Below, piece by piece: positions 1-14,929 of a DNA stretch of 61,756 nt; the first letter of the stretch is position 1; each line of letters opens with the position of its first letter. The notes under the pieces are model-generated. The model was given only the letters and a program-made list of their open reading frames with translations, did not search any database and was not told where the DNA came from. The stretch is from a virus (taxonomy: Duplodnaviria > Caudoviricetes), in IMG/VR virus record IMGVR_UViG_3300048854_000277, positions 1 through 61,756 of that record; one strand, written 5' to 3'. The translations under genes were made by a program, and so were the position numbers.

Positions 1-1068
1 TCATTTTGTCGGCTTCACTTTATCGCCGCGACGGTTTCTTACGTAGTGCTCGGTCATGGTTACGGATGAGTGTCCGAGCTGCTTCTGTGCCTGGCGAATG
101 TCGCCCGAGCTGTCGGTTTTATCCGTGCCTGCTTTGGCCCGAAGGTCACGGAATTGGAAGTCTCCATCTTTCACGCCGGCAGCTCGCCGGGCTTCACGAA
201 AACGTCGCTGCAATGTGTCGAGCAACATGCGCTGCCCGTTCTCATTGACAACGAGCGCCGTACTAACGACCTTATACCCTGCCTTGCGGGCTCGGATGCG
301 ATCGATCACCGCCTTTAGCTCGCCAAACACCTCCATGCGCAGCTTCTTCCCGGTCTTGCCTTGATCGATATGGAGCAACCCATCACGGATATGGCGCTCG
401 TCGTAGTTGAGCGTGTCCTGCGGGCGCTGTCCGCACAGATACGCCAGATCCATTGCATCGCGCGTCGGCTGGTCTGCGAGATCGTAGACCCGCTTAAATA
501 TATCGTCCTCGACGTAGACGTCACGCCCTGACTCCTTATTCACCTTGATACCGAGGCATGGGTTAGCAGCCTTCGTCATGCCGATCTCGCGTGCAAAGTT
601 GAACATATGGCTCAGCACTTCAACATCACGGTTGGCGCGGATGTAGCCCGCGCTTGGTGGCACAGGCCGCTTTTTTGATTGATACCATTCGACGGCTTTC
701 TTGTGGCGCCAATGCATATACTGCTTGACGTGCGTCGGCTCAATATCGTCTAGCGGCGCGCCATCGAAAAACTCTTTCAGCAAGCCAATTTGCACCAGCT
801 TTGCTGCTTGGCTGCTCGGGGCATTCGTGGGCAGCACGTCGCGCATGTACGCGTCGAAGGCATCCTTAATGGTCGGTGCGAGCATCTTTGGCATCTCTGC
901 CTGTTCGATCTCCGACCATCGCTTGACGGCAAGCACAAAGTCAGTCCCGAGCGATTCCTCATGGCGCGGACGGCCGCCATGATCGTAGTAGTAATACGTC
1001 ACCTTGCCGCGCCGTCTAGGCCGCATGCGTGGCGGACAATTCAAGTTGACGGTCGGCGTTCTCCCCAC
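1..1068 (-). CDS. int: Phage integrase (tyrosine recombinase)
   Basis: Catalytic motifs GQRPQD, QGKT, FRDLRAK, LGH and HYVR; N-terminal arm-binding-like region; lies at the prophage end. Confidence 0.95.
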   Translation of the reverse strand: MGRTPTVNLNCPPRMRPRRRGKVTYYYYDHGGRPRHEESLGTDFVLAVKRWSEIEQAEMPKMLAPTIKDAFDAYMRDVLPTNAPSSQAAKLVQIGLLKEFFDGAPLDDIEPTHVKQYMHWRHKKAVEWYQSKKRPVPPSAGYIRANRDVEVLSHMFNFAREIGMTKAANPCLGIKVNKESGRDVYVEDDIFKRVYDLADQPTRDAMDLAYLCGQRPQDTLNYDERHIRDGLLHIDQGKTGKKLRMEVFGELKAVIDRIRARKAGYKVVSTALVVNENGQRMLLDTLQRRFREARRAAGVKDGDFQFRDLRAKAGTDKTDSSGDIRQAQKQLGHSSVTMTEHYVRNRRGDKVKPTK

Positions 1069-1358: not shown

Positions 1359-1847
1359 TCATGCTGGTTGCCAATCGATCAGCGGCGTTTCGTATCCAAG
1401 CATCAGCGGGTGCAGTGGATCGCCCGACTTCGACAGGCCAAAACACTTCATCGGCTTCCCGCTCGCAACAAGCATCGCTTCGACCTCGTCATGCCGGTAG
1501 CGCAAGCGCTTCGGGACCTTAGCTCTCGGACCCCATGACGGCACGAGGATGTCGGCGTCTGCAATGATCTGTGCGAGGTGCATATCGTTGTCAGGGCCGA
1601 TAGGATCAATCGCTGACGCAAGTTCACGCACGTCGGTTGCACAGAACGCGAAAAGGTTGCCAACGATCATCCGGCTACCCTTGTTGAGCAGCGTGAAGCT
1701 GCGCCATTTCGTGACTGTGTGATCGTTCTTGACTGCGCCTGCTGTCGCACCGTTGACGCCTAGGTAGGCAATGACGATGCCGTTCGGCAAGCCTTCGCGC
1801 TCAAGCCGGTATCTGAACAGGCCGCATTCGCTGAATATTGCGCTCAT
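1359..1847 (-). CDS. DUF1643 family protein
   Basis: SECGLFRYRLER, NLFAFCATD, WG and PLHPL motifs; RBS GGAGG. Confidence 0.85.
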   Translation of the reverse strand: MSAIFSECGLFRYRLEREGLPNGIVIAYLGVNGATAGAVKNDHTVTKWRSFTLLNKGSRMIVGNLFAFCATDVRELASAIDPIGPDNDMHLAQIIADADILVPSWGPRAKVPKRLRYRHDEVEAMLVASGKPMKCFGLSKSGDPLHPLMLGYETPLIDWQPA

Positions 1848-2100: not shown

Positions 2101-2258
2101 GATGATGAATCCCCGCTTCGTTGCGACTCGATAGCAGCGAGATTGTTTTCGAGAATTGCGCGTAGCTCGTCAACATTGATGCAGATCGTGTCTTTTGATC
2201 CGGGATCGGCGGCCTCGGTCTCGCATACATCTCGAATGATGGTTTCGGTGATATTCAT
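2097..2258 (-). CDS. Small hypothetical protein, 53 aa (MNITETIIRDVCET...)
   Basis: Read manually; ATGA/GTGA coupling at both ends; RBS GGGAAG. Confidence 0.65.
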   Translation of the reverse strand: MNITETIIRDVCETEAADPGSKDTICINVDELRAILENNLAAIESQRSGDSSS

Positions 2259-2914
2259 GATGTCTTCCCCGTGGTGGTGATAGCAGCGTCTTGTTGCGAC
2301 TTAAGGGCGCGACACACTTTGATGCAATCGTTGCTGTCGAGCATGTAGTTGTCGTCAGCCGCCAAGTCGTCCTTAGCTTTGATCGCCGCACAGCATTCCT
2401 CGATCACGCTATCCCGGCTCGGGTGCGTATCCCAAAACGCCGGTTCGTCTTCCCCTTTGTAGCCCATGAGCAAATACGCGTCGTGCGCTGAACGATCGTC
2501 GAATACCTTTGGCATCCAGTAGGCGAGCGCTTTCTGAAGCGCGGCGATTATCTCGGCTGCATCATCGCAACGCGCCGCTACGCGCTCGAAATCGCGGCAC
2601 CCTGCCACGTACAAGCTATATGGCACAGTTGCTTCGGTGCTCTGTTCCGCAGTGGCGCGGGCTGCTTCGAGTTCGTCACACTTATCCTTGTGGTCAAGGT
2701 AGTGGCGATACGCGCCTTCAATGAAACCTTGCTCGATCATGGCCGCGATGCGCTTGGCTCGTTCCGCTTCACTTGGCACTGCGGCGATGCGCGCTGACAT
2801 AGCGCTAAGGCGAATCTCGGCAGCCCATATCGCTGCGAAGGTTTCGAGTGCGGAAAGCGCCTTATCGAGCGCGCGCCGCTGGTTCGGGCTCATCTGTTCG
2901 AGTTCGTCAGTCAT
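2255..2914 (-). CDS. Hypothetical modular early protein
   Basis: ATGA-coupled within the early operon. Confidence 0.7.
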   Translation of the reverse strand: MTDELEQMSPNQRRALDKALSALETFAAIWAAEIRLSAMSARIAAVPSEAERAKRIAAMIEQGFIEGAYRHYLDHKDKCDELEAARATAEQSTEATVPYSLYVAGCRDFERVAARCDDAAEIIAALQKALAYWMPKVFDDRSAHDAYLLMGYKGEDEPAFWDTHPSRDSVIEECCAAIKAKDDLAADDNYMLDSNDCIKVCRALKSQQDAAITTTGKTS

Positions 2915-3432
2915 GTCTTCTCCATTGGAGCGCTAGCAGCGTCAAGGATGAATTGCGCTTCTGCAATGCGTTCGTCGCGCTTGCACCGGTCATCCTTGTC
3001 CCACCAAATTTCGAATTCATCGTCAGTCCACTCATACTGCTCACACCGCTTGCGCTCAAGCGCCTTGGCTGCGCGCTCGGCATCCTGCGCATCGCTTGGC
3101 GCGGCGTCACGGGTGGCGAGCAGGTCAACGATCTTCCGCGCGATGAATCCCTCCCAGTGTTCGCCAGCGGGTGGATTAGCAGGCTCACACAGCAGTTCAT
3201 AGACTCCCTGAACGCGTGGATCATCAAACGTCGCCACCGGTCGCGCATCTGCGCCCTGCGTGGGGGCTCGCTGATTCCATGCATCGATTGCGCCGCGTTC
3301 TGTTGATCCTTGGCCTGTCATCGTCACCGCACAACTGTCGCACTTCACAAAGAAGCCATCGCAAACTTTCAACCACTGGGTAAGGATCGATGCTTTTCTG
3401 CCGCAAAACGGGCAAGGTTTCAGGCTGCTCAT
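2911..3432 (-). CDS. Lar-family (restriction alleviation-like) Zn-ribbon protein with additional modules
   Basis: LKPCPFCG...CDSC...AIDAWNQR. Confidence 0.8.
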   Translation of the reverse strand: MSSLKPCPFCGRKASILTQWLKVCDGFFVKCDSCAVTMTGQGSTERGAIDAWNQRAPTQGADARPVATFDDPRVQGVYELLCEPANPPAGEHWEGFIARKIVDLLATRDAAPSDAQDAERAAKALERKRCEQYEWTDDEFEIWWDKDDRCKRDERIAEAQFILDAASAPMEKT

Positions 3433-3911
3433 GATTTATTTCCGCCCATAGACGCTGCAAGGAGGGCGATAAGATCGGAACGCCAGCAGGTTACGGTCAG
3501 AGCGGTGCTCGACTCTGCTCTCAACGATTCTTTGAGCCTGGCGATAACCATCGGGTCGCTCGCGGCGGGACTGGCAGGGGCGGCGTAGAGCGGCGTTATG
3601 GTGTCACCGTCAAATTCACAAACTTGAACTTGAGCCTCCGAAGGCTTCTCTGTCCAAGCAACCCGCACCATTCCTCTTTTTGATGTGACCAACCACGCTA
3701 CCGGCGCGCTTCCAGTGGTCGGAGCGGTGGAGCGAGCGCGAATGCTATCCGCAGCAACGAGTGCCGCCATGTAGGTATCGGAGCCTCGTGACGCGTCTTT
3801 AATAGCCTTCTCGATGATGTCGATAATGGCTTCGCGCTCGCCTATAGCTGCGCCCGATACGTCGACTTGATCCGAGATCGGTGAGGGGGTGGTCGGGGTC
3901 ATTTTGGTCAT
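3429..3911 (-). CDS. Modular hypothetical protein (linkers E-C-D-A)
   Basis: ATGA coupling; shares four linker peptides with 5288..6007. Confidence 0.75.
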   Translation of the reverse strand: MTKMTPTTPSPISDQVDVSGAAIGEREAIIDIIEKAIKDASRGSDTYMAALVAADSIRARSTAPTTGSAPVAWLVTSKRGMVRVAWTEKPSEAQVQVCEFDGDTITPLYAAPASPAASDPMVIARLKESLRAESSTALTVTCWRSDLIALLAASMGGNKS

Positions 3912-4069
3912 AGCGTGTTTCGAGCCTTTCGGCGCACCTCAGAAACCAACCCTTGTTTTGATCGTACCTCTTGGCGCTCCATGTCTTTGAACACGGTCAT
4001 CACGAGGTCCTTGTATTTCTTGCTTTCGATCGCCTTTTTTGCGGCGCCCATCTTTATTACCTTTGCCAT
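3908..4069 (-). CDS. Small basic protein, 53 aa (MAKVIKMGAAKKAIESKK...)
   Basis: Read manually; RBS GAGG; stop overlaps the next ATG. Confidence 0.55.
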   Translation of the reverse strand: MAKVIKMGAAKKAIESKKYKDLVMTVFKDMERQEVRSKQGLVSEVRRKARNTL

Positions 4070-4078
4070 GCTCAAACC

Positions 4079-4360
4079 TCATTTGAGTTCGAAAGTTGAC
4101 CAAGCGCCGTAAAGACCGTGCCTATCAGCGCATGAGGGGCCTTTGCTCGCGATGATTGCGTATTGGCGAACCATGTCAGCGGACGGCTTGCCACTGCGAT
4201 AACGCTTCGTATTGCGTGCGATCAGACGAACGAAACAATCAGCACCTACAGTCCCAAGAGCAGTTGTCTGAACGCCGAGCTTCAAAGGGCGTCCGCAATG
4301 ATCGCAACTGCATTCTTGTTCGAAACCGTTGATTGTGATCGTTGTCATTTCGTTCTCCAT
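4079..4360 (-). CDS. Hypothetical protein with CxCxxC...C Zn-binding motif
   Basis: CSCDHCGRPLK...VGADC; a later ATG with GGAG RBS is also possible. Confidence 0.65.
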   Translation of the reverse strand: MENEMTTITINGFEQECSCDHCGRPLKLGVQTTALGTVGADCFVRLIARNTKRYRSGKPSADMVRQYAIIASKGPSCADRHGLYGAWSTFELK

Positions 4361-4381
4361 CTGTTTGCTTGTTCGATGTAG

Positions 4382-4446
4382 TTATTGTGATTCACAAAGT
4401 ACCGTAACGCAAGAACTATTTGAATCACGATAAGTTGTTGTACAAT
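4382..4446. promoter_or_regulatory. Divergent promoter/operator with a 13-bp inverted repeat
   Basis: TTATTGTGATTCA (4382-4394) and TGAATCACGATAA (4421-4433); TACAAT at 4441-4446, six nt before the ATG at 4453. Confidence 0.6.
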
Positions 4447-4452
4447 GCGTCC

Positions 4453-4623
4453 ATGGAACCTACAAAGCCCAAAATGGGTCGCCCCCCAAAATCACCCGAA
4501 GAGCGCCTTGAACAGCGCTCGATCCGGCTTACTGCTGCCCAATGGGCAAAGATCGACGCTCACGGGGTACCGTGGCTGCGCAAGCTGATCGACCGCGCTA
4601 AGCCTCCGAAGCCGGAGGAGTAG
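4453..4623 (+). CDS. Small DNA-binding protein (GRPP AT-hook-like plus RHH-like)
   Basis: MGRPPKSPEERLEQRSIRLTAAQWAKID...WLRKLID; opposite strand to the operon. Confidence 0.7.
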   Translation: MEPTKPKMGRPPKSPEERLEQRSIRLTAAQWAKIDAHGVPWLRKLIDRAKPPKPEE

Positions 4624-5158
4624 ATGATTTATCCCCGCCCATAGACGCTGCAAGTATGGCGCGACCTACTGCGATGGCGATCAGCTTTTGATTGTCAGTC
4701 GCAGTTCCCATCGGGTAGAAGATTTGCACGATTCGCTCATCGCTCAGCACCCCGTCCGCAGGCTTTGCATCGTTCGGGCCACCGTATCCGCATGTGCAAG
4801 GTGCCCACGGATCGTCTTCCATGATGTATCGACAACCAAGTGCATGCGCTTGCAAGGGCTTTGCATCGGCGGTAGCGCTGGCCGATGGCTGAGGGGCGAC
4901 GTTGCGGTTGGCGAGCCATTTCGCGAAGCTTTGGAGCATCTGCGTGAACGATTCCTTCGCCTCTACCGCGATCTGGCCTTCACGGTACATCGTCCAGCAA
5001 TGGTCGATTACCGATTGCGCCACCGGTCGCGCATCTGCGCCCTGCGTGGCGACTTCCTCAATGAGTTTCATGACTGCCGTTATCCCAATTCTTGTGGGTA
5101 TTGGGTACTCATTCAAGCGAGCACAAAGGGCTTCAACGCTAACCATTCGATCAGTCAT
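4598..5158 (-). CDS. Modular hypothetical protein (linkers B and A)
   Basis: TQGADARPVA and LAASMGGDKS linkers; H..GC...CTCG module. Confidence 0.72.
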   Translation of the reverse strand: MTDRMVSVEALCARLNEYPIPTRIGITAVMKLIEEVATQGADARPVAQSVIDHCWTMYREGQIAVEAKESFTQMLQSFAKWLANRNVAPQPSASATADAKPLQAHALGCRYIMEDDPWAPCTCGYGGPNDAKPADGVLSDERIVQIFYPMGTATDNQKLIAIAVGRAILAASMGGDKSSTPPASEA

Positions 5159-5291
5159 ATTTCGTCCCTCCGCAAATTGCGAAAAGAGCCAGACAAAAGA
5201 AGGCCACGCCGAGCATGACCCAAAGAAGAGTGAAGCTGTGCGCCCACAGGCAGATTGCGATTACCGTAGCGAAAAACAGCACTCCGATCAT
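5151..5291 (-). CDS. Small membrane protein, 46 aa (MIGVLFFATVIAICLWAH...)
   Basis: Read manually; ATGA-coupled; two hydrophobic segments. Confidence 0.55.
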   Translation of the reverse strand: MIGVLFFATVIAICLWAHSFTLLWVMLGVAFFCLALFAICGGTKYD

Positions 5292-6007
5292 GTCCGATCT
5301 CTGCCAATAGACGCTGCAAGGAGGGCGCGCGCGTATTTGAGGCGCTCATTGGTATTGATGGTCCTCCATGCGTATGTCTCGCTGTCGTCGGGCACGAACC
5401 AGACAATGCCGAGCTTGTCCTCGACCTTTCGGATAAGTGCCGTCAGTTCCGCATCCGTCAGCACGCTCGCTGCGGGACTGGCAGGCTTGGCATATTGAGG
5501 GTCTTTCGCAGCGCTTGAGAGCCAAGTCTGAACGCTCTCTTCGCTAACGTATTCATCCTCGCAATGGTCGATCAAATAGCAGCCAAATGTCATGGCATCC
5601 ATCGCTACCGGCGCGCTTCCAGTGGTCGGAGCGGTTGAGCGACGATTCCAATCTCTGATAACTTCGCCTTTAGTGCCCCTACGGATTTGGCTGCAAAATA
5701 CTGCGCAGGATATTTGCCATAGCGGCGTCTTGCCGGGGCGAATATTCTCCGGCTTACCGGCAGATGCGCCGCAGAACGGACAAGGAAAAAGCTCGCCTGC
5801 CGCTTGCGAGATCGGGGAGGGGGTGGGAGTAACGGCGAGCATGGCATTCCAATCGCTTGCGCAGACCAAAGCGTTAGCCTCTTCGTCGCTTGATCCGTCC
5901 GGTACATCGGCGCGAGTGCTAGCCCATGCTTCTATCATTTCGGGCGTAGGTTCGATCGGTACGAGTTTCCAACCTGTTGGGATCGGTGAGGTAGTGATTG
6001 ATGTCAT
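5288..6007 (-). CDS. Modular protein with an N-terminal WKLVPIEPTPEM domain and a Lar-type Zn ribbon
   Basis: GWKLVPIEPTPEMIEA; LFPCPFCG...CAVFC...WNRR; linkers E-C-D-A. Confidence 0.78.
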   Translation of the reverse strand: MTSITTSPIPTGWKLVPIEPTPEMIEAWASTRADVPDGSSDEEANALVCASDWNAMLAVTPTPSPISQAAGELFPCPFCGASAGKPENIRPGKTPLWQISCAVFCSQIRRGTKGEVIRDWNRRSTAPTTGSAPVAMDAMTFGCYLIDHCEDEYVSEESVQTWLSSAAKDPQYAKPASPAASVLTDAELTALIRKVEDKLGIVWFVPDDSETYAWRTINTNERLKYARALLAASIGRDRT

Positions 6008-6015
6008 TTCATTCC

Positions 6016-6864
6016 TTAGTCGCCGCAGAAGCCAGAGATCGCCTCTTCATCGGCATCAAAAATGTCTACTTGCTGCCTGGCGTATTCAGCCATTCGGCCG
6101 TAGCTCGGTCGGTCATTGCGGAACCGCGCTCCATCGCCAGTCGCGATAGACTCCGCCGATTTCTCCTGCTGGGCCCACCAGATGGCGCGCTCCGGTTTCT
6201 CCGCGATCAGGCTGAATACCTGCTTGGCGGGCTTCAACATGCAAAGATCGCAATTGCCGTGCAGCGTCTTCCCGTTGATGTTCGGTAGCGCAAGATCGAA
6301 AGTCTGTGACTTCCAAAAATCACCGACCATGCCCGACGATACAAAATCATCGGCAAGCGGGATGCGGACAAACTCATCGGGCGTTTCGGGATGCGGGTTG
6401 AAGCGGAATTTTGCTACTCGGCGCGGCTCATCGGCCCGGACGCCGATCATCGTTTCCCACTCGGTTATGCCAATTGAGCGCAAGTAACGATGTATCGTGC
6501 GGGTCTTCATTTCGGATGAGCGGTAGCGCGATCGAGGATTAGGCAGGATGCCGCCACGTTGCCTTATGACAGCTTCAAAGGGCTCACCTTGGCGACTGGC
6601 CGTGTCGAATGTCACGACTTCAAATTCTGCGCCTTCACGGTATTCGAGCCAAATGATGTCGATGCCCCAATTCAGTCCGATGTCACGCACAAACTCAAGC
6701 GTGGCTTCTTCTTCCTTCCCCGTATTGCAGAACAATGGGATGGCCTCATCAGGAAGCCCGCCGTTCACTTCGATGACCTTATGAGTCATATAGGCAGATG
6801 TTCTACCGCCGCTTATGTTCAGCGATGTTGGCCCGGCTACCTTGTACGGACTAATTCCGTTCAT
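6016..6864 (-). CDS. Phosphoadenosine phosphosulfate reductase (PP-loop) family protein
   Basis: SGGRTS PP-loop, NTGKE, IGVRADEPRR, GNCDLCMLK. Confidence 0.85.
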   Translation of the reverse strand: MNGISPYKVAGPTSLNISGGRTSAYMTHKVIEVNGGLPDEAIPLFCNTGKEEEATLEFVRDIGLNWGIDIIWLEYREGAEFEVVTFDTASRQGEPFEAVIRQRGGILPNPRSRYRSSEMKTRTIHRYLRSIGITEWETMIGVRADEPRRVAKFRFNPHPETPDEFVRIPLADDFVSSGMVGDFWKSQTFDLALPNINGKTLHGNCDLCMLKPAKQVFSLIAEKPERAIWWAQQEKSAESIATGDGARFRNDRPSYGRMAEYARQQVDIFDADEEAISGFCGD

Positions 6865-6929
6865 CCCAAACCTCTCCTGTTATCAATCCCGCCAACCCGC
6901 ATCCCAGACGCAGCGGGTAGGGTGCGGGG

Positions 6930-7475
6930 TTATGCTTGCTCTGCGAATAATCCGGTCTGCACCTGACCACTCATCGCGCCGAAATATGCATCGATCGCTT
7001 CCTGAACGGCGCCTGATCCGGGAAACAAATCTGATACCGTGTCGCCTTCCTGCACGTTCAAAACGTCCATCAACCAGAACACGAATGCGGCAGGCTTAGC
7101 GCCTGTGAAACCGCGCTTGAGCGTGATATTCACGGCGCACCAATCGCGGACGGTGGCTTGCTGGCGAGTGCGCCTCCTGCCGCCCATCACGATCACCGGC
7201 TCCCACGAGTACGCCACGCCAACATTGGGCTTGAAGACCGCGAACGGCTTCACCCAAGCCATCACACGCGCCTCTTTCGGGCAGAGCGGCAGAATGTGAT
7301 GAAGGTTGCCGCTCGTCATCGACAGCGCCCAACCGTCAGAAAACTCGTTGCACAACCGATCTATCAGCGTTTTGTGGCCTTCCAGCGAGTCGTACACTGC
7401 GGCCTCCGGATGATCGCCATAAAGCTTCACAGAGCACCCGAAATACGGCGGATCAGCTATCGCGAAATTCATCAC
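6930..7475 (-). CDS. Small DNA amino-methyltransferase (N6A/N4C, beta-like motif order)
   Basis: N-terminal ADPPY and C-terminal DLFPGSG SAM-binding motif. Confidence 0.8.
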   Translation of the reverse strand: MMNFAIADPPYFGCSVKLYGDHPEAAVYDSLEGHKTLIDRLCNEFSDGWALSMTSGNLHHILPLCPKEARVMAWVKPFAVFKPNVGVAYSWEPVIVMGGRRRTRQQATVRDWCAVNITLKRGFTGAKPAAFVFWLMDVLNVQEGDTVSDLFPGSGAVQEAIDAYFGAMSGQVQTGLFAEQA

Positions 7476-7517
7476 ATCCTCTCAATTTGTCGCAGTAGGT
7501 GCGCGGACGATGGTTCG

Positions 7518-7703
7518 TTACTCGGGCTTGCGTGTAATCAGCCCGTCACCGACACGCAGCGTTACGACCAAGCCTGATTTGTGCGCCAACAATTCCAAGG
7601 TCGCGGCGATGAAGGCATGTTCGAGTTGAGCGCTAGGTTTCGCAGACGAGCACAACGCATCGATCGCGCGGTGAGCGGCGCGGCCTAATGGGTCGATGGT
7701 CAC
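7518..7703 (-). CDS. Hypothetical protein
   Basis: GTG overlaps the upstream stop (GTGA). Confidence 0.45.
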   Translation of the reverse strand: MTIDPLGRAAHRAIDALCSSAKPSAQLEHAFIAATLELLAHKSGLVVTLRVGDGLITRKPE

Positions 7704-8410
7704 GGCATCACTCGATTGAATTCGATTACCCATATCCACGGGTTGGTATCCCACGATTCAGCGCCGTTGATGTCAGCCCATACCTGCTGGAACATGCCGT
7801 ACGCGCTGGCGTCGAAGTGCCGCTTTCCATCGGCCAGCGTGCATTCATTGACCCAGCCGTTCTTTTGATCGTGCTGTCGAATACCTTCGGCCAGAGCATC
7901 GGTCTCGCTGATGTCCTGCAACCGCTCGACGCGTACGTCGATGACTTCGAGCATGATGCGCGACGCCCAACGCGGCATGTGGATGGATGGCGTCCAACGG
8001 CAACCGGGCCCGTCCATGTCTTCGTACCAAAGTTCGGGCTCAGGATCAGATGCCTTGTAATGCGGCTGCGACCAATAGCAGTCGTCGTCACCGAATCGCT
8101 TCACCGGGCGGCCGTCGTTATGCGGCGCCCCTGCATCGTCGTCCGTCATCCGGTTCGATTCGAGGCAGAACGTCTCGCGCACCCACAGACGGTCGCCCGC
8201 CTTGCCGAACGGGCAGCGCACCGGGCCCCAGAGCGGATAGTTCTGCCAGTACGACTCAATCGCTTCATCGTCCGTGAAGGTGTCGAATGCGAACTTGCCT
8301 CGATGGTTCGCAACTGGCTGCAACTTCACGATGCGACGTGTCTGCGTCTTGCTTCCGTCGAGCAGCGCGCGCACCATGGCGCCGGAAAACAGAATGGGAC
8401 GTTCTTTCAT
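7700..8410 (-). CDS. ASCH/PUA-like phage protein
   Basis: MKERPILFS..MVRALLDGSKTQTRR, GDRLWVRET, WTPSIHMPRWASRI, NPWIWVIEF. Confidence 0.85.
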   Translation of the reverse strand: MKERPILFSGAMVRALLDGSKTQTRRIVKLQPVANHRGKFAFDTFTDDEAIESYWQNYPLWGPVRCPFGKAGDRLWVRETFCLESNRMTDDDAGAPHNDGRPVKRFGDDDCYWSQPHYKASDPEPELWYEDMDGPGCRWTPSIHMPRWASRIMLEVIDVRVERLQDISETDALAEGIRQHDQKNGWVNECTLADGKRHFDASAYGMFQQVWADINGAESWDTNPWIWVIEFNRVMP

Positions 8411-8578
8411 CACATGCCTCAAAAATAGGGTGAGCCGCCAGTAGTGCGCGGCATGGGGTGGGTTACAGCGTGCTTCGCGCCCTAGTACTAAAACGGCTTT
8501 GAAATCTGCCGACAAATACTGGAATGTTTATTGCTCGATACCCCTCAACAGCGGCGAGAGCGCTGGATTGGGGGAGAC

Positions 8579-8932: not shown

Positions 8933-9790
8933 TTAATTAGCGAATGGATCGCCGAAGAAGAACGGATTGCCAGTTTTTTCCTTGATCGTGTCGATCACGG
9001 TCGTGGCGGCTGCCTCCAGCACCTTGTCCTGGCGGATCAGTTCGTACCAGAACACCAACTTGCCGTCTTTCACGCGGTATCGAAGGCGAGCGTCGAGGCG
9101 ATACGCATCACCGCTCCAGAAGACCGGAATGCCAACGGCAAAACGTTCGAACACAGACATGCGCTCGAGTGTTTGCGCGTCGTCGTCCTGCACGAACGAC
9201 AAGTTGACGCCGCCATTTGAGAGGCGCACAGCGCTCTTGAACCGCATGTCTTGGGTGGCTTCGAACGACATTGCCATTTCAAGCATGGCATTGCCGCCAG
9301 GCAAGCCTGAGTCGTCCGGGCTAGCGATGTCGCGAAGGTTGTCTTCGATGAAGGCCGCGAATTCGGTTTGCGTGAAGGTCTTTTTGTTCGCGCCGATCCA
9401 GCGACGCCATTCCTCGCTGAATTCCGGCGTATAGAAGGCGCGATGGTCACGCCAGGCCTGCGCAGTGTCATCCTCACCGTGATCGTTCAGGATGCCAGTG
9501 AATGCCACCTTGCCCTGCACATAATCCGCGAGACACCAAATCGTGCAGTCAGTCAGCGATCCATGCCGCTTCAAATATGCAATGAAGCTATCAACGTCGC
9601 GAACGCGGACCGTGGCGCGTTTGCGCAACGGCGTGGCGAGCGTCGCAGAGTCGTCGTGCTCTTCCAGCTTCCAGCCCGGCGGGAGGGCGATACGTTTTAC
9701 ATGTGCTGCCGTGTTGCTGCCGATCTCATGCGGCTGTTTGAGTTCGCGCGCGAGAGTCTCGGCAAAGTTGTCAGATTCGTTCAGTTCCAT
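8933..9790 (-). CDS. DUF2303 / YfdQ family protein
   Basis: SFIAY, LNDH, WRDHRA, QTEFAAFIEDN, IPVF, ARLRYR. Confidence 0.88.
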   Translation of the reverse strand: MELNESDNFAETLARELKQPHEIGSNTAAHVKRIALPPGWKLEEHDDSATLATPLRKRATVRVRDVDSFIAYLKRHGSLTDCTIWCLADYVQGKVAFTGILNDHGEDDTAQAWRDHRAFYTPEFSEEWRRWIGANKKTFTQTEFAAFIEDNLRDIASPDDSGLPGGNAMLEMAMSFEATQDMRFKSAVRLSNGGVNLSFVQDDDAQTLERMSVFERFAVGIPVFWSGDAYRLDARLRYRVKDGKLVFWYELIRQDKVLEAAATTVIDTIKEKTGNPFFFGDPFAN

Positions 9791-10496: not shown

Positions 10497-10847
10497 CTAC
10501 GCGTTGACGCGCTCCGGGAGCTCTTCGACCATCGTGCAATCCGACTTTCCGATAGCCGCCAACAGGTCATGCAGATCAGCCTCGTTGTGGTCGTACCAGC
10601 GGCCACTGATGAACAGCTCGCCGTTGCGAGCGATCGCATGCAACTTGCAGGCGCGGCCCTTCACGTAGTCCATGCTCAGGCCGCCGCCGGAATACTTCTT
10701 CCCGTCGTCGATGATTTGCTGGGCAACCTCGTCGGACAACTCGCCCTCTTCAAAATGCAGGTAGCCAAGCCCCTGCGGACGGCTAAAGCGATATGCCGCC
10801 TTCGCCAGGTCTTTCAACTCAACGCCGGTTACGTTCAGATACGACAC
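10497..10847 (-). CDS. Hypothetical phage protein
   Basis: GTG after RBS AAGGAGG; S.PQGLG.LH and DYVKGR..K motifs. Confidence 0.7.
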   Translation of the reverse strand: MSYLNVTGVELKDLAKAAYRFSRPQGLGYLHFEEGELSDEVAQQIIDDGKKYSGGGLSMDYVKGRACKLHAIARNGELFISGRWYDHNEADLHDLLAAIGKSDCTMVEELPERVNA

Positions 10848-11004
10848 ACCGCCTCCTTGGCTAGTTAGATACGATCTCGTCAGCGCACGCCTTACGTGCG
10901 GATGGCTTCCCAGCCATTTCGATCTTTGCGGGGCTTTCTCCCGCCGTTTGCATATGACCTCCTGCTTCAGGCTCATTGCCGGATTGCTGGCCGGCGCCAT
11001 GCTC

Positions 11005-11150
11005 TGTTCAGTGGATGGATCGGCAAACGAGGATTCGGTCCGCAGACTCGGTGTCCTCTACGCCAGTCCGGACGGGCCACCCCCATCCGACCAACTCGGC
11101 GCTTCATAGCTCGTGAAGGCTCCACGCCGTACAAATCCATCCAGTGAACA
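11005..11150 (-). ncRNA. Candidate multi-branch structured RNA element in the PL transcript
   Basis: 16-bp closing inverted repeat (15/16) enclosing about three internal hairpins, in non-coding DNA. Confidence 0.4.
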
Positions 11151-11378
11151 TGCCCATTACGCCGGGCCAGCGGCTAAAGACAAACAGTCCGTTCACGAGG
11201 TGTGGCTGATTGGCCAGTTGATGTCGCGGTACGACTTGTTTGTCTGTTCCATTTCCCGCTCGTGGATAGCGCCACCACGCACCATCAGACAAACAGCCAA
11301 GCAGATCAGAGCATCGGTGGCCATGAGGACTACTATCAGGTTCGTGAGCACGGTGAGCCTTTACGGGAGACGAAACGG

Positions 11379-13626: not shown

Positions 13627-14535
13627 TCACTCAGGGCGCCATGCAGAAGGGCGGCAAATCGCTCGCACGAAATGAAGTCTTTCGATTTCATCATCTGAAA
13701 AGGCCATAGGTGGGTGTGCGTCGTTCACCGAAATCAGGTGCGTGCGCCCCGCGCGCTTGTATAGAAAGCGTTTGATCATGACTCGCCCGTCTTTCGACTT
13801 CATTAGCACGTCATCGCCAGGCTCAACAGGCTGATTCGGTTCGATCACGACATACTCTCCCGCCTGAATGCGCGGCTTCATTGAGTCGCCCTCACACCTA
13901 AGAGCGTACGCATCCTTGTCCCTGGTGGGGAAATCGATGTACCCGTCGCCGTGACCGACGGGGTATTCGAGATCCGACCAGTGCCCGTTATCCCCGAGCT
14001 GTGCTGTTCCTACCACTGGGATAGAACTCCATTTGGTAATCGGAATGGGATTGAACTCATCGTTGTGAGGGACGGCGAGATGCTTGTCGCCCTTTCCCAT
14101 AACGAGCCATACCGGATTCACTCCGAAGGCCTGCTGCAGACCGACGGCTTGTTCGAGAGTTATCGGGGATCCTTTCCCGGTAAGCCAGCCGGCGACCGTT
14201 TCGTCGGTCGTCCCCGCGGCGCCGGCCACCTTTGTCAAGTTTCCGTCTGCGCTGGTAAGCAGTTCATGAATCCTATCAGCGAGACCGGGTGCTCCAATTG
14301 ATGGAACAGCGGCACTAATAGGCGTCTCCTCGCCGGTTATCCACCAATTTGCCGAGTGCCCCAATTTCTCGACCAACTTAGGGATGTGTTTTTTGGCGAT
14401 TCGGCCGAAGTTGACCCAGTCGTAAACGGACGGTGGCTTGACGCCAAACATTTCAGCAATGTCGGCGTGCGTCAGGGCACGGCGAGTCATCTCATCGAAG
14501 AGGCGTTCGCCAATATGTTTAGGATCTTTAGGCAT
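13627..14535 (-). CDS. cI: CI-like repressor with two HTH domains and an S24 peptidase domain
   Basis: Two Xre-type HTH units; GDSM.P and K-containing S24 domain; divergent from cro. Confidence 0.92.
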   Translation of the reverse strand: MPKDPKHIGERLFDEMTRRALTHADIAEMFGVKPPSVYDWVNFGRIAKKHIPKLVEKLGHSANWWITGEETPISAAVPSIGAPGLADRIHELLTSADGNLTKVAGAAGTTDETVAGWLTGKGSPITLEQAVGLQQAFGVNPVWLVMGKGDKHLAVPHNDEFNPIPITKWSSIPVVGTAQLGDNGHWSDLEYPVGHGDGYIDFPTRDKDAYALRCEGDSMKPRIQAGEYVVIEPNQPVEPGDDVLMKSKDGRVMIKRFLYKRAGRTHLISVNDAHPPMAFSDDEIERLHFVRAICRPSAWRPE

Positions 14536-14603
14536 TGCCTGTAGATACAGCACGTCTTTATTTTCGGCAATGCCTTGACGTTTGATTAGGCTTTGCCTAG
14601 AAT
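14529..14603. promoter_or_regulatory. OR region with PR, a PRM candidate and three operators
   Basis: TAGGCATTGCCTG, TCGGCAATGCCTT and TAGGCTTTGCCTA; PR is TTGACG(14575)-N17-TAGAAT(14598). Confidence 0.88.
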
Positions 14604-14611
14604 CGTTTTTC

Positions 14612-14929
14612 ATGAACAAGTCAAACCCCCACGCCGTGATTCAAGCCTGCGCAATTGCCGGGAGTAAGTCGGCGCTTGCGCGCGCTGTCGGCGTAAAGCC
14701 GCCGACCGTCCAGGAGTGGTGCAACGGCGCCCGTCCGGTCCCGCCCGCTAAGTGTGTCGCAATTGAGCGGGCGACAGGCGGAAAGATTGGGCGACGTGAT
14801 TTGATGCCAGAGGGATGGGAGGAAATTTGGCCGGAACTTGCCGATGACGTCGACAAGGCAAAGGTCGTGGACGATGTTCAACCGCCGGGCGGGGCGGCTG
14901 ATCCTGATGCTGACAAGGAAAGTGATTGA
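14612..14929 (+). CDS. cro: Cro-like repressor (YdaS family)
   Basis: GSKSALARAVGVKPPTVQEW...CVAIERATGG...IWPEL. Confidence 0.9.
   Translation: MNKSNPHAVIQACAIAGSKSALARAVGVKPPTVQEWCNGARPVPPAKCVAIERATGGKIGRRDLMPEGWEEIWPELADDVDKAKVVDDVQPPGGAADPDADKESD

Follow-up and report, generated by a model that had tools for sequence, protein, structure and literature searches.

Ordered, nearly invariant DNA blocks between unrelated protein modules in a soil prophage: putative joints for in-frame cassette exchange

Why should two genes of one prophage share four short DNA blocks in the same order, nearly identical even at synonymous positions, when the sequences between those blocks are unrelated? The question is raised by ORFs 3429..3911 and 5288..6007 of a prophage from soil, of which a 61.7-kb stretch (hereafter the window) was analyzed. 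The region lies between int/xis, with an integrase gene at 1..1068, and a CI-like repressor, and the relatives that have names are Caballeronia in every case. We consider it probable, as one joint reading of the sequences, that a temperate lambdoid-type phage of Burkholderiaceae has here the accessory part of its early-left operon, that the blocks serve as joints for recombination, just long enough to pair, and permit in-frame cassette exchange, and that the encoded proteins are beads on a string, in which independently folding modules alternate with short linkers rich in Pro, Ala, Ser, and Thr. The genes that carry the blocks are as follows.

3429..3911, minus strand: scaffold gene 1, 160 aa; blocks in the order E-C-D-A, with modules 1, 2, and 3 in the three intervals.
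5288..6007, minus strand: scaffold gene 2, 239 aa; opens with a weak E copy and a GWKLVPIEPT module, followed by E-C-D-A with a Lar-like Zn ribbon between E and C and one module in each of the other two intervals.
2911..3432, minus strand: B-type gene, 173 aa; the Lar Zn ribbon comes first, then block B and a module with RDAAPS end, with DAASAPMEKT plus stop as the C-terminal junction.
4598..5158, minus strand: hybrid gene, 186 aa; block B separates an N-terminal module from a long one, which is followed by block A.

The individual copies of the blocks, with their identity to other loci (L numbers), are listed below.

3873..3895, minus strand: block E copy 1, TTPSPISDQ, N-terminal, sharp edges; 94.9%-100% identity to L002, L020, L004, and L021.
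5807..5829, minus strand: block E copy 2, TPSPISQAAGE, internal.
3696..3735, minus strand: block C copy 1, RSTAPTTGSAPVA; 100% identity over 33-37 nt to L003, L020, and L128.
5603..5642, minus strand: block C copy 2; 39/40 nt shared with copy 1, 1 difference from the family form.
3548..3587, minus strand: block D copy 1, AAPASPAAS; core 3557-3578.
5455..5494, minus strand: block D copy 2, PASPAASVLTD; 97% identity to L003 and L021.
3431..3468, minus strand: block A copy 1, ALLAASMGGNKS plus stop; a GGAG-like ribosome-binding site lies within it, and stop and next start overlap as ATGA.
4624..4661, minus strand: block A copy 2; 89% identity; ATGA junction lost, ORF extending 9 codons further.
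5290..5327, minus strand: block A copy 3, ALLAASIGRDRT plus stop; 82% identity; ATGA overlap with the 46-aa gene 5151..5291.
3231..3268, minus strand: block B copy 1, APTQGADARPVA, immediately after the Lar domain; 100% identity to L003 and L128, 94-97% to L006, L009, and L021.
5018..5054, minus strand: block B copy 2; 100% identity over 30-32 nt to L006, L128, L005, and L009.

A repeat search returned E, C, D, and A in both scaffold genes at the places given by an earlier note on this DNA. The E copies (3873-3892 versus 5807-5826) agree at 19/20 nt, with a weaker third copy at 5978-5997, and the D copies show 78% identity over 40 nt with a 22-nt core matching at 21/22. Block B, which the same note had placed in 2911..3432 and 4598..5158, was located with its perfect 32-nt core (3232-3268 and 5018-5054; 35/37 nt overall). 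All copies are in direct orientation, and no further or inverted block copies were found in the window. The spacers recomputed from the sequence measured 137 versus 164, 117 versus 117, and 88 versus 136 nt, reproducing the lengths reported before, with differences of 27, 0, and 48 nt. Exact matches between the two scaffold ORFs reached 33 nt, whereas in 200 codon shuffles the longest match averaged 9.2 nt and never exceeded 12 nt. When the paired ORFs were compared by BLASTP, essentially the linker peptides alone aligned, and the stretches between them were gapped and dissimilar. A Lar-type Zn ribbon had been claimed in two genes; PF14354 was significant in 2911..3432 (44.7 bits, Pfam cut-off 28.6), which also matched TIGR03655 (43.4 bits, cut-off 39.6), whereas the second occurrence, in 5288..6007, fell below the cut-off (25.3 versus 28.6 bits). 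No Pfam or PHROG family matched 4598..5158.

The scaffold is not confined to this prophage. A profile search retrieved 100 proteins at an E-value of 0.001 or lower among 1.84 billion representatives, and a word-indexed search gave 98 family proteins. The E-C-D-A order was kept in 87/88 proteins with at least two linker kinds; E was the first motif in 62/62 and lay within 10 aa of the N-terminus in 51/62, and A was C-terminal in 69/71. Between the linkers, 44, 36, and 44 module instances in the successive slots fell into 32, 30, and 33 clusters, that is, approximately 30 unrelated modules in each, and no similarity was found between modules of different slots. The expectation that linkers in other genomes and contigs would be flanked by different modules was thus borne out, with identity ending at the linker edges; residual homology between the intervening segments was looked for, across slots as well, and none was found. 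Modules range from approximately 20 to more than 150 aa, wider than the 30-55 aa first proposed. They are also reassorted: every D-to-A module found in at least two proteins (4/4) had at least two C-to-D partners, and for the remaining slot pairs two to three of three to four modules had multiple partners. Both module 2 of 3429..3911 (in P0051) and its module 3 (in P0002, P0003, and P0006) turn up again with different partners, and the slot-2 module of 5288..6007 recurs in P0060 with different neighbors. The family is rare in isolates (3/69 genus genomes and 2/399 sampled family genomes), and the isolate-genome copies L004, L142, and L144 each carry different modules.

Is the conservation one of DNA or of peptide? 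Across six to nine distinct instances per block, the E, C, and B cores mostly showed a per-column pairwise identity of 0.9 or more and the D and A cores one of at least 0.7, with scattered lower columns; within a few bases outside the block edges it dropped to approximately 0.1-0.4. Blocks on unrelated contigs match at synonymous positions too, as the earlier note had stated. Degenerate back-translated patterns yielded from family members the canonical codon version alone: 117 chance matches to the C pattern differed from the family form at 5-12 of 29 nt, compared with 0-1 in six family copies and 0/29 in copy 1, and nine chance matches to the A pattern used other codons, while family members had their codons in common. 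Codon bias was weak (GC3 0.66). Synonymous drift does exist, since block C has two changes in L004 and two in L142. Between the same loci, 62 HSPs of 18-30 nt had a mean identity of 97.7%, whereas HSPs longer than 70 nt (n = 18) were mostly 72-93% identical, with one at 100%, a comparison biased in that diverged short matches escape detection. In two independent soil metagenomes (X2 and X3), the summed contig depth was 88-187 on bins containing blocks and approximately 0-7 on most module bins, and block-to-block joints were numerous.

Similar blocks occur at gene junctions over 1.3-8.5 kb of the early-left operon, beyond 2911-6007.

2906..2941, minus strand: second gene-end junction block, DAASAPMEKT plus stop, ATGA, and next gene start; 88-91% identity to L021, L006, and L005; related copy at 2260-2290.
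3096..3118, minus strand: in-frame joint LATRDAAPS inside the B-type gene; peptide also in B-type genes of L005/L006 and L021.
2279..2312, minus strand: conserved block CRALKSQQDAAI, near the end of gene 2255..2914; 100% identity over 23-34 nt to L021, L006, L005, and L020.
6860..6945, minus strand: conserved intergenic junction, 88-94% identity to L002, L006, and L021; runs from the end of gene 6930..7475 through a hairpin and a ribosome-binding site into the beginning of a PAPS-reductase-like gene; contig depth piles up here in X2 and X3.
7468..7541, minus strand: conserved junction upstream of gene 6930..7475.
8413..8458, minus strand: conserved block where gene 7700..8515 probably starts; 98% identity to L006.

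Block B, like RDAAPS, serves as a joint in another type of gene, which in most cases lies immediately downstream; B stands outside the ordered scaffold, in which it had been counted as one of five linkers.

AlphaFold2 predicted for 3429..3911 a helical hairpin (residues 21-60), a beta-beta-alpha-beta unit (70-109, pLDDT >90), and helices (115-154). Linkers E, C, and D were of low confidence and without secondary structure, block A was placed within a helix, and the geometry between modules was not fixed (pTM 0.35).

Could the blocks instead be functional peptides of one protein family (docking motifs, tags for targeting at the termini, or a shared scaffold, for example), with modules as lineage-specific insertions and DNA identity reflecting recent common descent? 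The peptides are conserved in approximately 100 proteins in a fixed order with E and A at the termini, A is predicted to be helical, and motifs in fixed synteny can build a structural core in gp38 adhesins, as described in the part of PMC3157838 available to us. We nevertheless consider this unlikely. Synonymous sites in the blocks stay fixed, whereas most of the longer homologous segments from these loci have diverged; degenerate patterns retrieved no cloud of synonymous variants, and the predicted model gives E, C, and D no structure and the modules no fixed relative geometry. Blocks of the same kind lie in noncoding intergenic junctions, and modules, whole Zn ribbons and a pyrophosphohydrolase domain among them, are swapped outright rather than diverged, at sizes of 20 to more than 150 aa. 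A regulatory role or one at the RNA level (sRNA target, structured RNA, or signal for translation), with module diversity incidental, is very improbable: although block A and other gene-end blocks hold the next gene's ribosome-binding site and start, and codons within blocks tend to be slightly rarer than the average codon (0.31 versus 0.37), a start or ribosome-binding context is missing at the internal blocks E, C, D, and B, none of the blocks is overlapped by an Rfam family, their folding energies equal those of shuffles, and complementary copies are absent from the window.

Several distinct, invariant, and sharply bounded sequences, together with the integrase gene, would also suit a dedicated site-specific system with its own enzyme (shufflon- or integron-like cassettes or nuclease-stimulated homing). 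This is quite improbable, because the copies are all direct, the five sequences have no evident common core or notable dyad symmetry (judged informally by eye), block folding is not unusual (z-scores -0.34 to 0.92), and Pfam and PHROGs name no additional recombinase, invertase, or homing nuclease in the operon. That the pattern is an artifact, either low-complexity coincidence or chimeric metagenome assembly over short repeats, is hardly credible. Logan contigs of X1 terminate exactly within blocks, many family proteins derive from 1-3 kb contigs, and some module combinations come from such short contigs, where 30-37 nt repeats can give chimeras; but the shuffle controls rule out coincidence, X1 contigs have similar depth over the region (14.3-20.1), and the module combinations are not solely metagenome chimeras because the three isolate copies carry the scaffold with differing modules.

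We return to recombination joints as the preferred explanation. Linker DNA of approximately 20-37 nt is nearly invariant across a population of soil phages, and each block would offer a segment of about the smallest size that homologous pairing can use. A module lying between two different joints would be replaced, with the frame kept, by one crossover in each of them, the partners being perhaps co-infecting phages or a phage and a resident prophage. Order and frame would be preserved because every position has its own joint sequence. Repeated exchange would homogenize the joints, and mutated copies would leave the exchange pool. Whole-gene junctions of the operon may follow the same logic. 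Block A forms the C-terminus and also brings the ribosome-binding site of the gene that follows and the ATGA overlap onto it. For efficient pairing, the available part of PMC3945230 gives a minimum of 31-34 bp for RecA and 23-27 bp for Red-beta; block cores of 23-37 nt agree with these sizes, several of them (E, approximately 23 nt; D, approximately 22-25 nt) being shorter than the RecA figure. No RecT, ERF, YqaJ, or AAA_24 gene was found in the provirus, and Pfam and PHROGs named no recombinase in the early-left operon, so that the pairing enzyme would be host RecA or something unrecognized. We infer crossovers within the blocks from sequence comparison, and "recombination joint" is an interpretive term because no crossover was seen in the contigs and none of these four genes is present.

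The boundary linkers of the phage modular theory are reportedly due to Susskind and Botstein (1978) and Clark et al. (2001). In the portion of PMC3029335 available, short conserved boundary sequences at module junctions are the proposed substrates of homologous recombination; the blocks here are likewise short conserved junction sequences flanked by unrelated DNA, also at lambdoid early-operon gene junctions, but they are pervasive, position-specific, and ordered, many lie in frame within ORFs at domain boundaries, and each slot has approximately 30 alternative modules. T-even gp38 adhesins share strict conservation and synteny of short glycine-rich motifs (GRMs) and the exchange of variable segments by recombination in or near them, and their GRMs apparently form the structural core of one virion protein whose variable parts are short loops (PMC3157838, same part). 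Here, by contrast, the linkers are predicted to be unstructured, whole unrelated domains vary, and the genes are early accessory ones. In polymorphic toxin loci (pre-toxin motifs, e.g., VENN in CdiA) and pilin/vls-type cassettes, a short conserved sequence also demarcates exchangeable, unrelated modules downstream of it, with a single junction and a silent-cassette donor array within one genome. The present system differs in its several ordered junctions and in donors that appear to be other phages. Phage Rad52-like recombinases can likewise use short or diverged homology, although these studies, as far as their available text goes, deal with genes homologous over hundreds of bp rather than with standardized joints of 20-37 nt (PMC3945230; PMC2327257), and no RecT, ERF, YqaJ, or AAA_24 gene was found in this provirus. 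Polyvalent proteins of phages and conjugative elements resemble the proteins here in combining many unrelated small domains per polypeptide, in mobile-element origin, and in a presumed host-conflict role; conserved nucleotide-level linkers are not described in the available part of that account (PMC5512222), and the proteins here are small (approximately 120-400 aa across the family), with a Pfam domain in just 9/99.

Those domains bear on what the modules might do. Over the 99 family proteins, Pfam found Lar in six and dATP/dGTP pyrophosphohydrolase in three, and PHROGs found Gam-like modules in two and nuclease-inhibitor modules in two. The Lar, Gam-like, and nuclease-inhibitor modules hint at an anti-defense role, and the proteins may serve host takeover or counter-defense.

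All four open reading frames of the array lie on the minus strand, and a repeat search of the window recovered every E, C, D, A and B block described in the earlier note. Here, E, C, D and A denote the linkers of the scaffold genes, ordered from the N- to the C-terminus, with the module slots E>C, C>D and D>A between them; B and the peptide RDAAPS are the joints of the B-type genes.

Genes of the array and their block copies (window coordinates)
2911..3432, minus, B-type gene
3429..3911, minus, scaffold gene 1 (160 aa)
4598..5158, minus, B/A hybrid gene
5288..6007, minus, scaffold gene 2
3431-3468, 4624-4661 and 5290-5327, block A, found by repeat search
3232-3268 and 5018-5054, block B, 35/37 nt with a perfect 32-nt core
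3696-3735 and 5603-5642, block C, 39/40 nt
3548-3587 and 5455-5494, block D, 22-nt core, 21/22 nt
3873-3892 and 5807-5826, block E, 19/20 nt, with a weaker copy at 5978-5997

The block coordinates reproduced the reported spacers of 137/164, 117/117 and 88/136 nt, and the observation made in the earlier note is confirmed. The longest exact match between the two scaffold genes was 33 nt, whereas the longest matches in 200 codon shuffles averaged 9.2 nt and never exceeded 12 nt; chance repeats were therefore rejected. Alignment between the array proteins by BLASTP was essentially limited to the linker peptides, and this result, together with the clustering of modules, led us to reject an ancient duplication whose copies retain homology.

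A degenerate pattern for the block C peptide matched 2 viral contigs and, in 185,579 species genomes, gave a single match, in Caballeronia sp. dw_19; patterns for B, E and A retrieved further loci. These loci have the linkers in common and differ in the sequences around them. The 160-aa protein retrieved 20 proteins as a query, and an alignment of 18 sequences anchored on the linkers retrieved 98 proteins in a word-indexed search and, from 1.84 billion representatives, 100 at E ≤ 0.001, including 67 at ≤ 1e-10. The consensus of this alignment is MTxxTPSPISDQAAGE ... STAPTTGSAPVA ... PASPAASVLTD ... ALLAASMGGDKx. At least two kinds of linker were present in 88 of 106 family proteins, and the order E, C, D, A was kept in 87 of these 88, the sole exception being a tandem C-D-C-D-A. 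E was the first motif in 62/62 proteins, and A lay no more than 12 aa from the C-terminus in 69/71. At one related locus (L003, 318-360), a 10-C run between the ATG and block E shifts the start codon out of frame with the E-GWKLVPVEPT module; the run may be a slippery site, or an error made in sequencing the homopolymer.

When the family proteins were cut at the linkers and the pieces clustered, 44 instances in the E>C slot fell into 32 clusters, 36 in C>D into 30 and 44 in D>A into 33, and the clustering showed no module similarity between slots. Recurrent modules usually had differing neighbors, and each of the four recurrent D>A modules had at least two different C>D partners. The expectation of invariant linkers with many different modules between them was thus borne out, with approximately 30 modules per slot, reassorted among proteins. 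Module 2 of scaffold gene 1 also occurs in the family protein P0051 and module 3 in P0002, P0003 and P0006, and the slot-2 module of scaffold gene 2 occurs in P0060; judged from these comparisons, both scaffold genes of the window are module chimeras. Few isolates carry the scaffold: 3 of the 69 genomes from the genus did, as did at least 2 of 399 sampled genomes of the bacterial family (8 candidates per genome scored). No deposited phage was found to carry it: the Caballeronia scaffold protein, used as a tblastn query on 50,697 phage records, returned 6 of them, all at E ≥ 7.

The blocks are also conserved at the nucleotide level. Pairwise identity per column, computed over 6-9 distinct instances of each block, was mostly ≥0.9 in the cores of E, C and B and ≥0.7, with scattered lower columns, in D and A, and it fell to ~0.1-0.4 a few bases beyond the block edges. 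The degenerate patterns would have matched synonymous variants as well; the family members retrieved had identical codons throughout. Among the matches listed for the C pattern, 117 chance matches differed at 5-12 of 29 nt and the six family copies at 0-1, and nine chance matches to the A pattern used codons other than the family's. A metagenome scan with a loose C pattern, in which WSN stands as well for Thr, Cys, Trp, Arg and stop codons, placed 1 of 118 loci (L128) in the family among the matches listed; the remaining 117 were used purely as the codon control above. GC3 was 0.66 and the block codons were slightly rarer than average (0.31 vs 0.37), so codon bias was rejected as the cause of the identity. 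Matching segments longer than 70 nt between the same loci (n = 18) were mostly 72-93% identical, with one of 127 nt at 100%, and those of 18-30 nt (n = 62) had a mean identity of 97.7%, a comparison biased by the fact that diverged matches of short length escape detection. Even so, divergence of 80-90% would not be expected to leave perfect 30-37-nt matches at five recurring places in one pair of loci after another. Drift was seen as two synonymous changes in block C of the isolate-genome copy L004, and likewise in that of L142.

The region was present in three soil metagenome runs (X1-X3), which we examined as contigs, a form of data in which rare recombinants are invisible. Logan contigs of X1, the possible source sample, end exactly in blocks and, over 2200-7600, break at every block of at least ~25 nt, indicating that in this phage group the joints are places where an assembly easily fragments or becomes chimeric. 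X2 and X3, which come from a study other than that of X1, showed many block-to-block joints, and summed contig depth there was 88-187 on block bins and ~0-7 on most module bins, uncovered module parts being uninformative in themselves. This pattern suggests that the blocks, not the modules, are common to many co-occurring genomes.

The window is a complete IMG/VR provirus, and its gene order and strands show that the array belongs to the early-left accessory operon of a temperate phage of lambdoid type.

Genes around and within the array (window coordinates)
1..1068, minus, integrase gene
1359..1847, minus, DUF1643
3908..4075, minus, gene within the segment 3908-4623
4079..4360, minus, gene assigned to phrog_19038, within the same segment
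4420..4623, plus, 67-aa gene within the same segment, converging on the extended end of 4598..5158 with a 26-nt overlap
6016..6864, minus, PAPS-reductase-like gene beyond the array
8933..9790, minus, DUF2303
between DUF2303 and the repressor, minus, HTH protein
13627..14619, minus, CI-like S24 repressor
after the repressor, plus, replication protein O

DNA matches to deposited phages were few, limited to Burkholderia, Ralstonia and Rhizobium phages and all outside the array; a blastn search with 2200-7500 matched only parts of the adjacent gene 2255..2914. The segment 3908-4623 separates two pairs of scaffold and B genes and is absent from the family loci. The ATGA junction of the block A copy at 4624-4661 is missing exactly at the edge of this segment, as if an insertion had landed at that joint. 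Scaffold gene 2 and the B/A hybrid flank a hydrophobic 46-aa ORF (5151-5291), which has an ATGA-type overlap with each of its two neighbors.

A blastn search of the window against the family loci revealed further blocks of 20-90 nt with 88-100% identity.

Further conserved blocks (window coordinates)
1311-1368
1849-1879
2109-2135
2279-2312
2639-2667
2906-2941
3096-3118
6860-6945, intergenic, 88-94% in L002, L006 and L021
7468-7541
8413-8458

Most of these are gene junctions, comprising a stop codon, a ribosome-binding site and a start codon, and block A is itself a gene junction since it ends in an ATGA stop/start overlap. In the block at 6860-6945, a small hairpin (ACCCGC...GCGGGT) precedes a strong ribosome-binding site and the beginning of the PAPS-reductase-like gene, and the depth of this block is among the highest of the blocks in X2 and X3. 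A stretch of 176 nt at 10997-11172, directly upstream of gene 10497..11000, is 85% identical to L006, far longer than the other blocks and free of assigned ORFs. B-type genes begin with an N-terminal module, Lar or another, followed by B, a second module, RDAAPS, a third module and PREKT*; they usually lie directly downstream of a scaffold gene, and two such pairs are present in the window.

The AF2 model of the 160-aa protein (mean pLDDT 70, pTM 0.35) comprises a helical hairpin, a beta-beta-alpha-beta unit with pLDDT above 90 and, at the C-terminus, a helical module, and the E, C and D stretches are of low confidence and without secondary structure; beads on a string describes the predicted protein. 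In the PDB, Foldseek found nothing similar to this model at E ≤ 0.001. The slot-2 module with the confident beta-beta-alpha-beta fold (3582-3695, AWLVTSKRG...TITPLYAAP) recurs in proteins without scaffold linkers (P0004-P0011), and a similar PLY/PQY-A-x-P motif adjoining block D closes several slot-2 modules that are unrelated to one another.

Among 99 family members, 9 had a Pfam domain at E ≤ 0.001 (Lar in 6 and PF04447, dATP/dGTP pyrophosphohydrolase, in 3), none of them an Ead/Ea22-like or other family for the scaffold itself, and NCBIfam gave no match for P0001, P0012 and P0024. PHROGs assigned 38 families, mostly unnamed; the named ones were Lar-like (7), Mu Gam-like (2), host nuclease inhibitor (2) and sulfatase-modifying factor enzyme (1). 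With a ~55-aa Zn ribbon above the curated cut-off (PF14354, 28.6 bits; TIGR03655, 39.6 bits) as the definition of the Lar family, 2911..3432 is significant at 44.7 and 43.4 bits, respectively, whereas 5288..6007 has the CPFCG motif and remains below threshold at 25.3 and 18.7 bits. The related protein P0016 passes the Lar model at 40.4 bits. The Lar module of 2911-3432 scored 30.8 bits against the NCBIfam RalR endodeoxyribonuclease toxin, far below the cut-off of 113. A host-takeover or counter-defense role of the proteins is plausible, on slender support.

The earlier note had taken the linkers as recombination joints for in-frame swapping of anti-host or anti-defense modules, and joints for homologous recombination are, from sequence comparison, the best-supported reading of the blocks. 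Minimal efficient pairing segments are quoted as 31-34 bp for RecA and 23-27 bp for Red-beta (PMC3945230), and the block cores of 23-37 nt are within this range. A pair of crossovers, each at its own joint, would exchange the intervening module in frame; the order would be preserved because each position has its own joint, and frequent exchange would homogenize the joints. Against this reading, the contigs showed no crossover, and a search of the provirus for a single-strand annealing protein or its exonuclease with four models, RecT, ERF, YqaJ and AAA_24 (PF03837, PF04404, PF09588 and PF13479), gave 0 matches each.

The linker peptides could instead have a function of their own. A site-specific recombination system acting at the blocks is unlikely, since the window contains no inverted block copies and neither Pfam nor PHROGs named an extra recombinase or invertase in the operon; a shufflon has inverted sites and a dedicated recombinase, neither of which was found here, and an invertible shufflon was rejected on these grounds. 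An RNA or regulatory role found no support for the internal blocks: their predicted structure was no better than that of shuffles, and no Rfam family lay over the blocks, the one weak match (7665-7693) being below the gathering score. An artifact is excluded by the codon shuffles and the isolate genomes.

Short conserved boundary sequences have long been proposed, and two features of the boundary-sequence (linker) model are also true here, namely, a short conserved junction sequence with unrelated flanks and one junction joined to different modules across genomes. In the gp38 adhesin, conserved motifs in fixed synteny lie between exchangeable segments and apparently represent the structural core (PMC3157838). 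The strict motif synteny of this GRM/HVS type is matched in 87/88 proteins of the present family; the gp38 motifs, however, apparently form a domain core, whereas E, C and D are unstructured, with low pLDDT, in an AF2 model of moderate confidence. For an ordered, in-frame, multi-joint scaffold in early accessory genes with ~30 modules per slot, we found no description in the literature, subscription journals and supplements being outside the scope of the search.

Beyond the reading of the blocks as homologous-recombination joints, we tentatively propose, as a possibility that we rate below even, that the joints are an evolved, standardized assembly grammar in which each position has its own in-frame homology tag of minimal pairing size, amounting to a recombinase-free "domain integron." Drawing on a common pool of at least 90 modules, a soil-phage population would then build multi-domain proteins for host takeover or counter-defense in many combinations, and second-order selection for exchangeability would preserve the nucleotide sequence of the tags.

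Whether phage mosaicism originates from homologous exchange at linkers or from illegitimate recombination plus selection has been argued since the modular theory, in part because conserved boundary sequences are rarely visible (PMC3029335). Here, such sequences are unusually clear: there are many of them, their nucleotides do not vary, they lie in frame within genes and in a fixed order, and each slot has dozens of alternative modules. The question thereby becomes directly testable. The family also provides a catalogue of ~90 small phage modules, most of them without annotation, that evidently work as interchangeable units, and a natural design rule for in-frame domain swapping.
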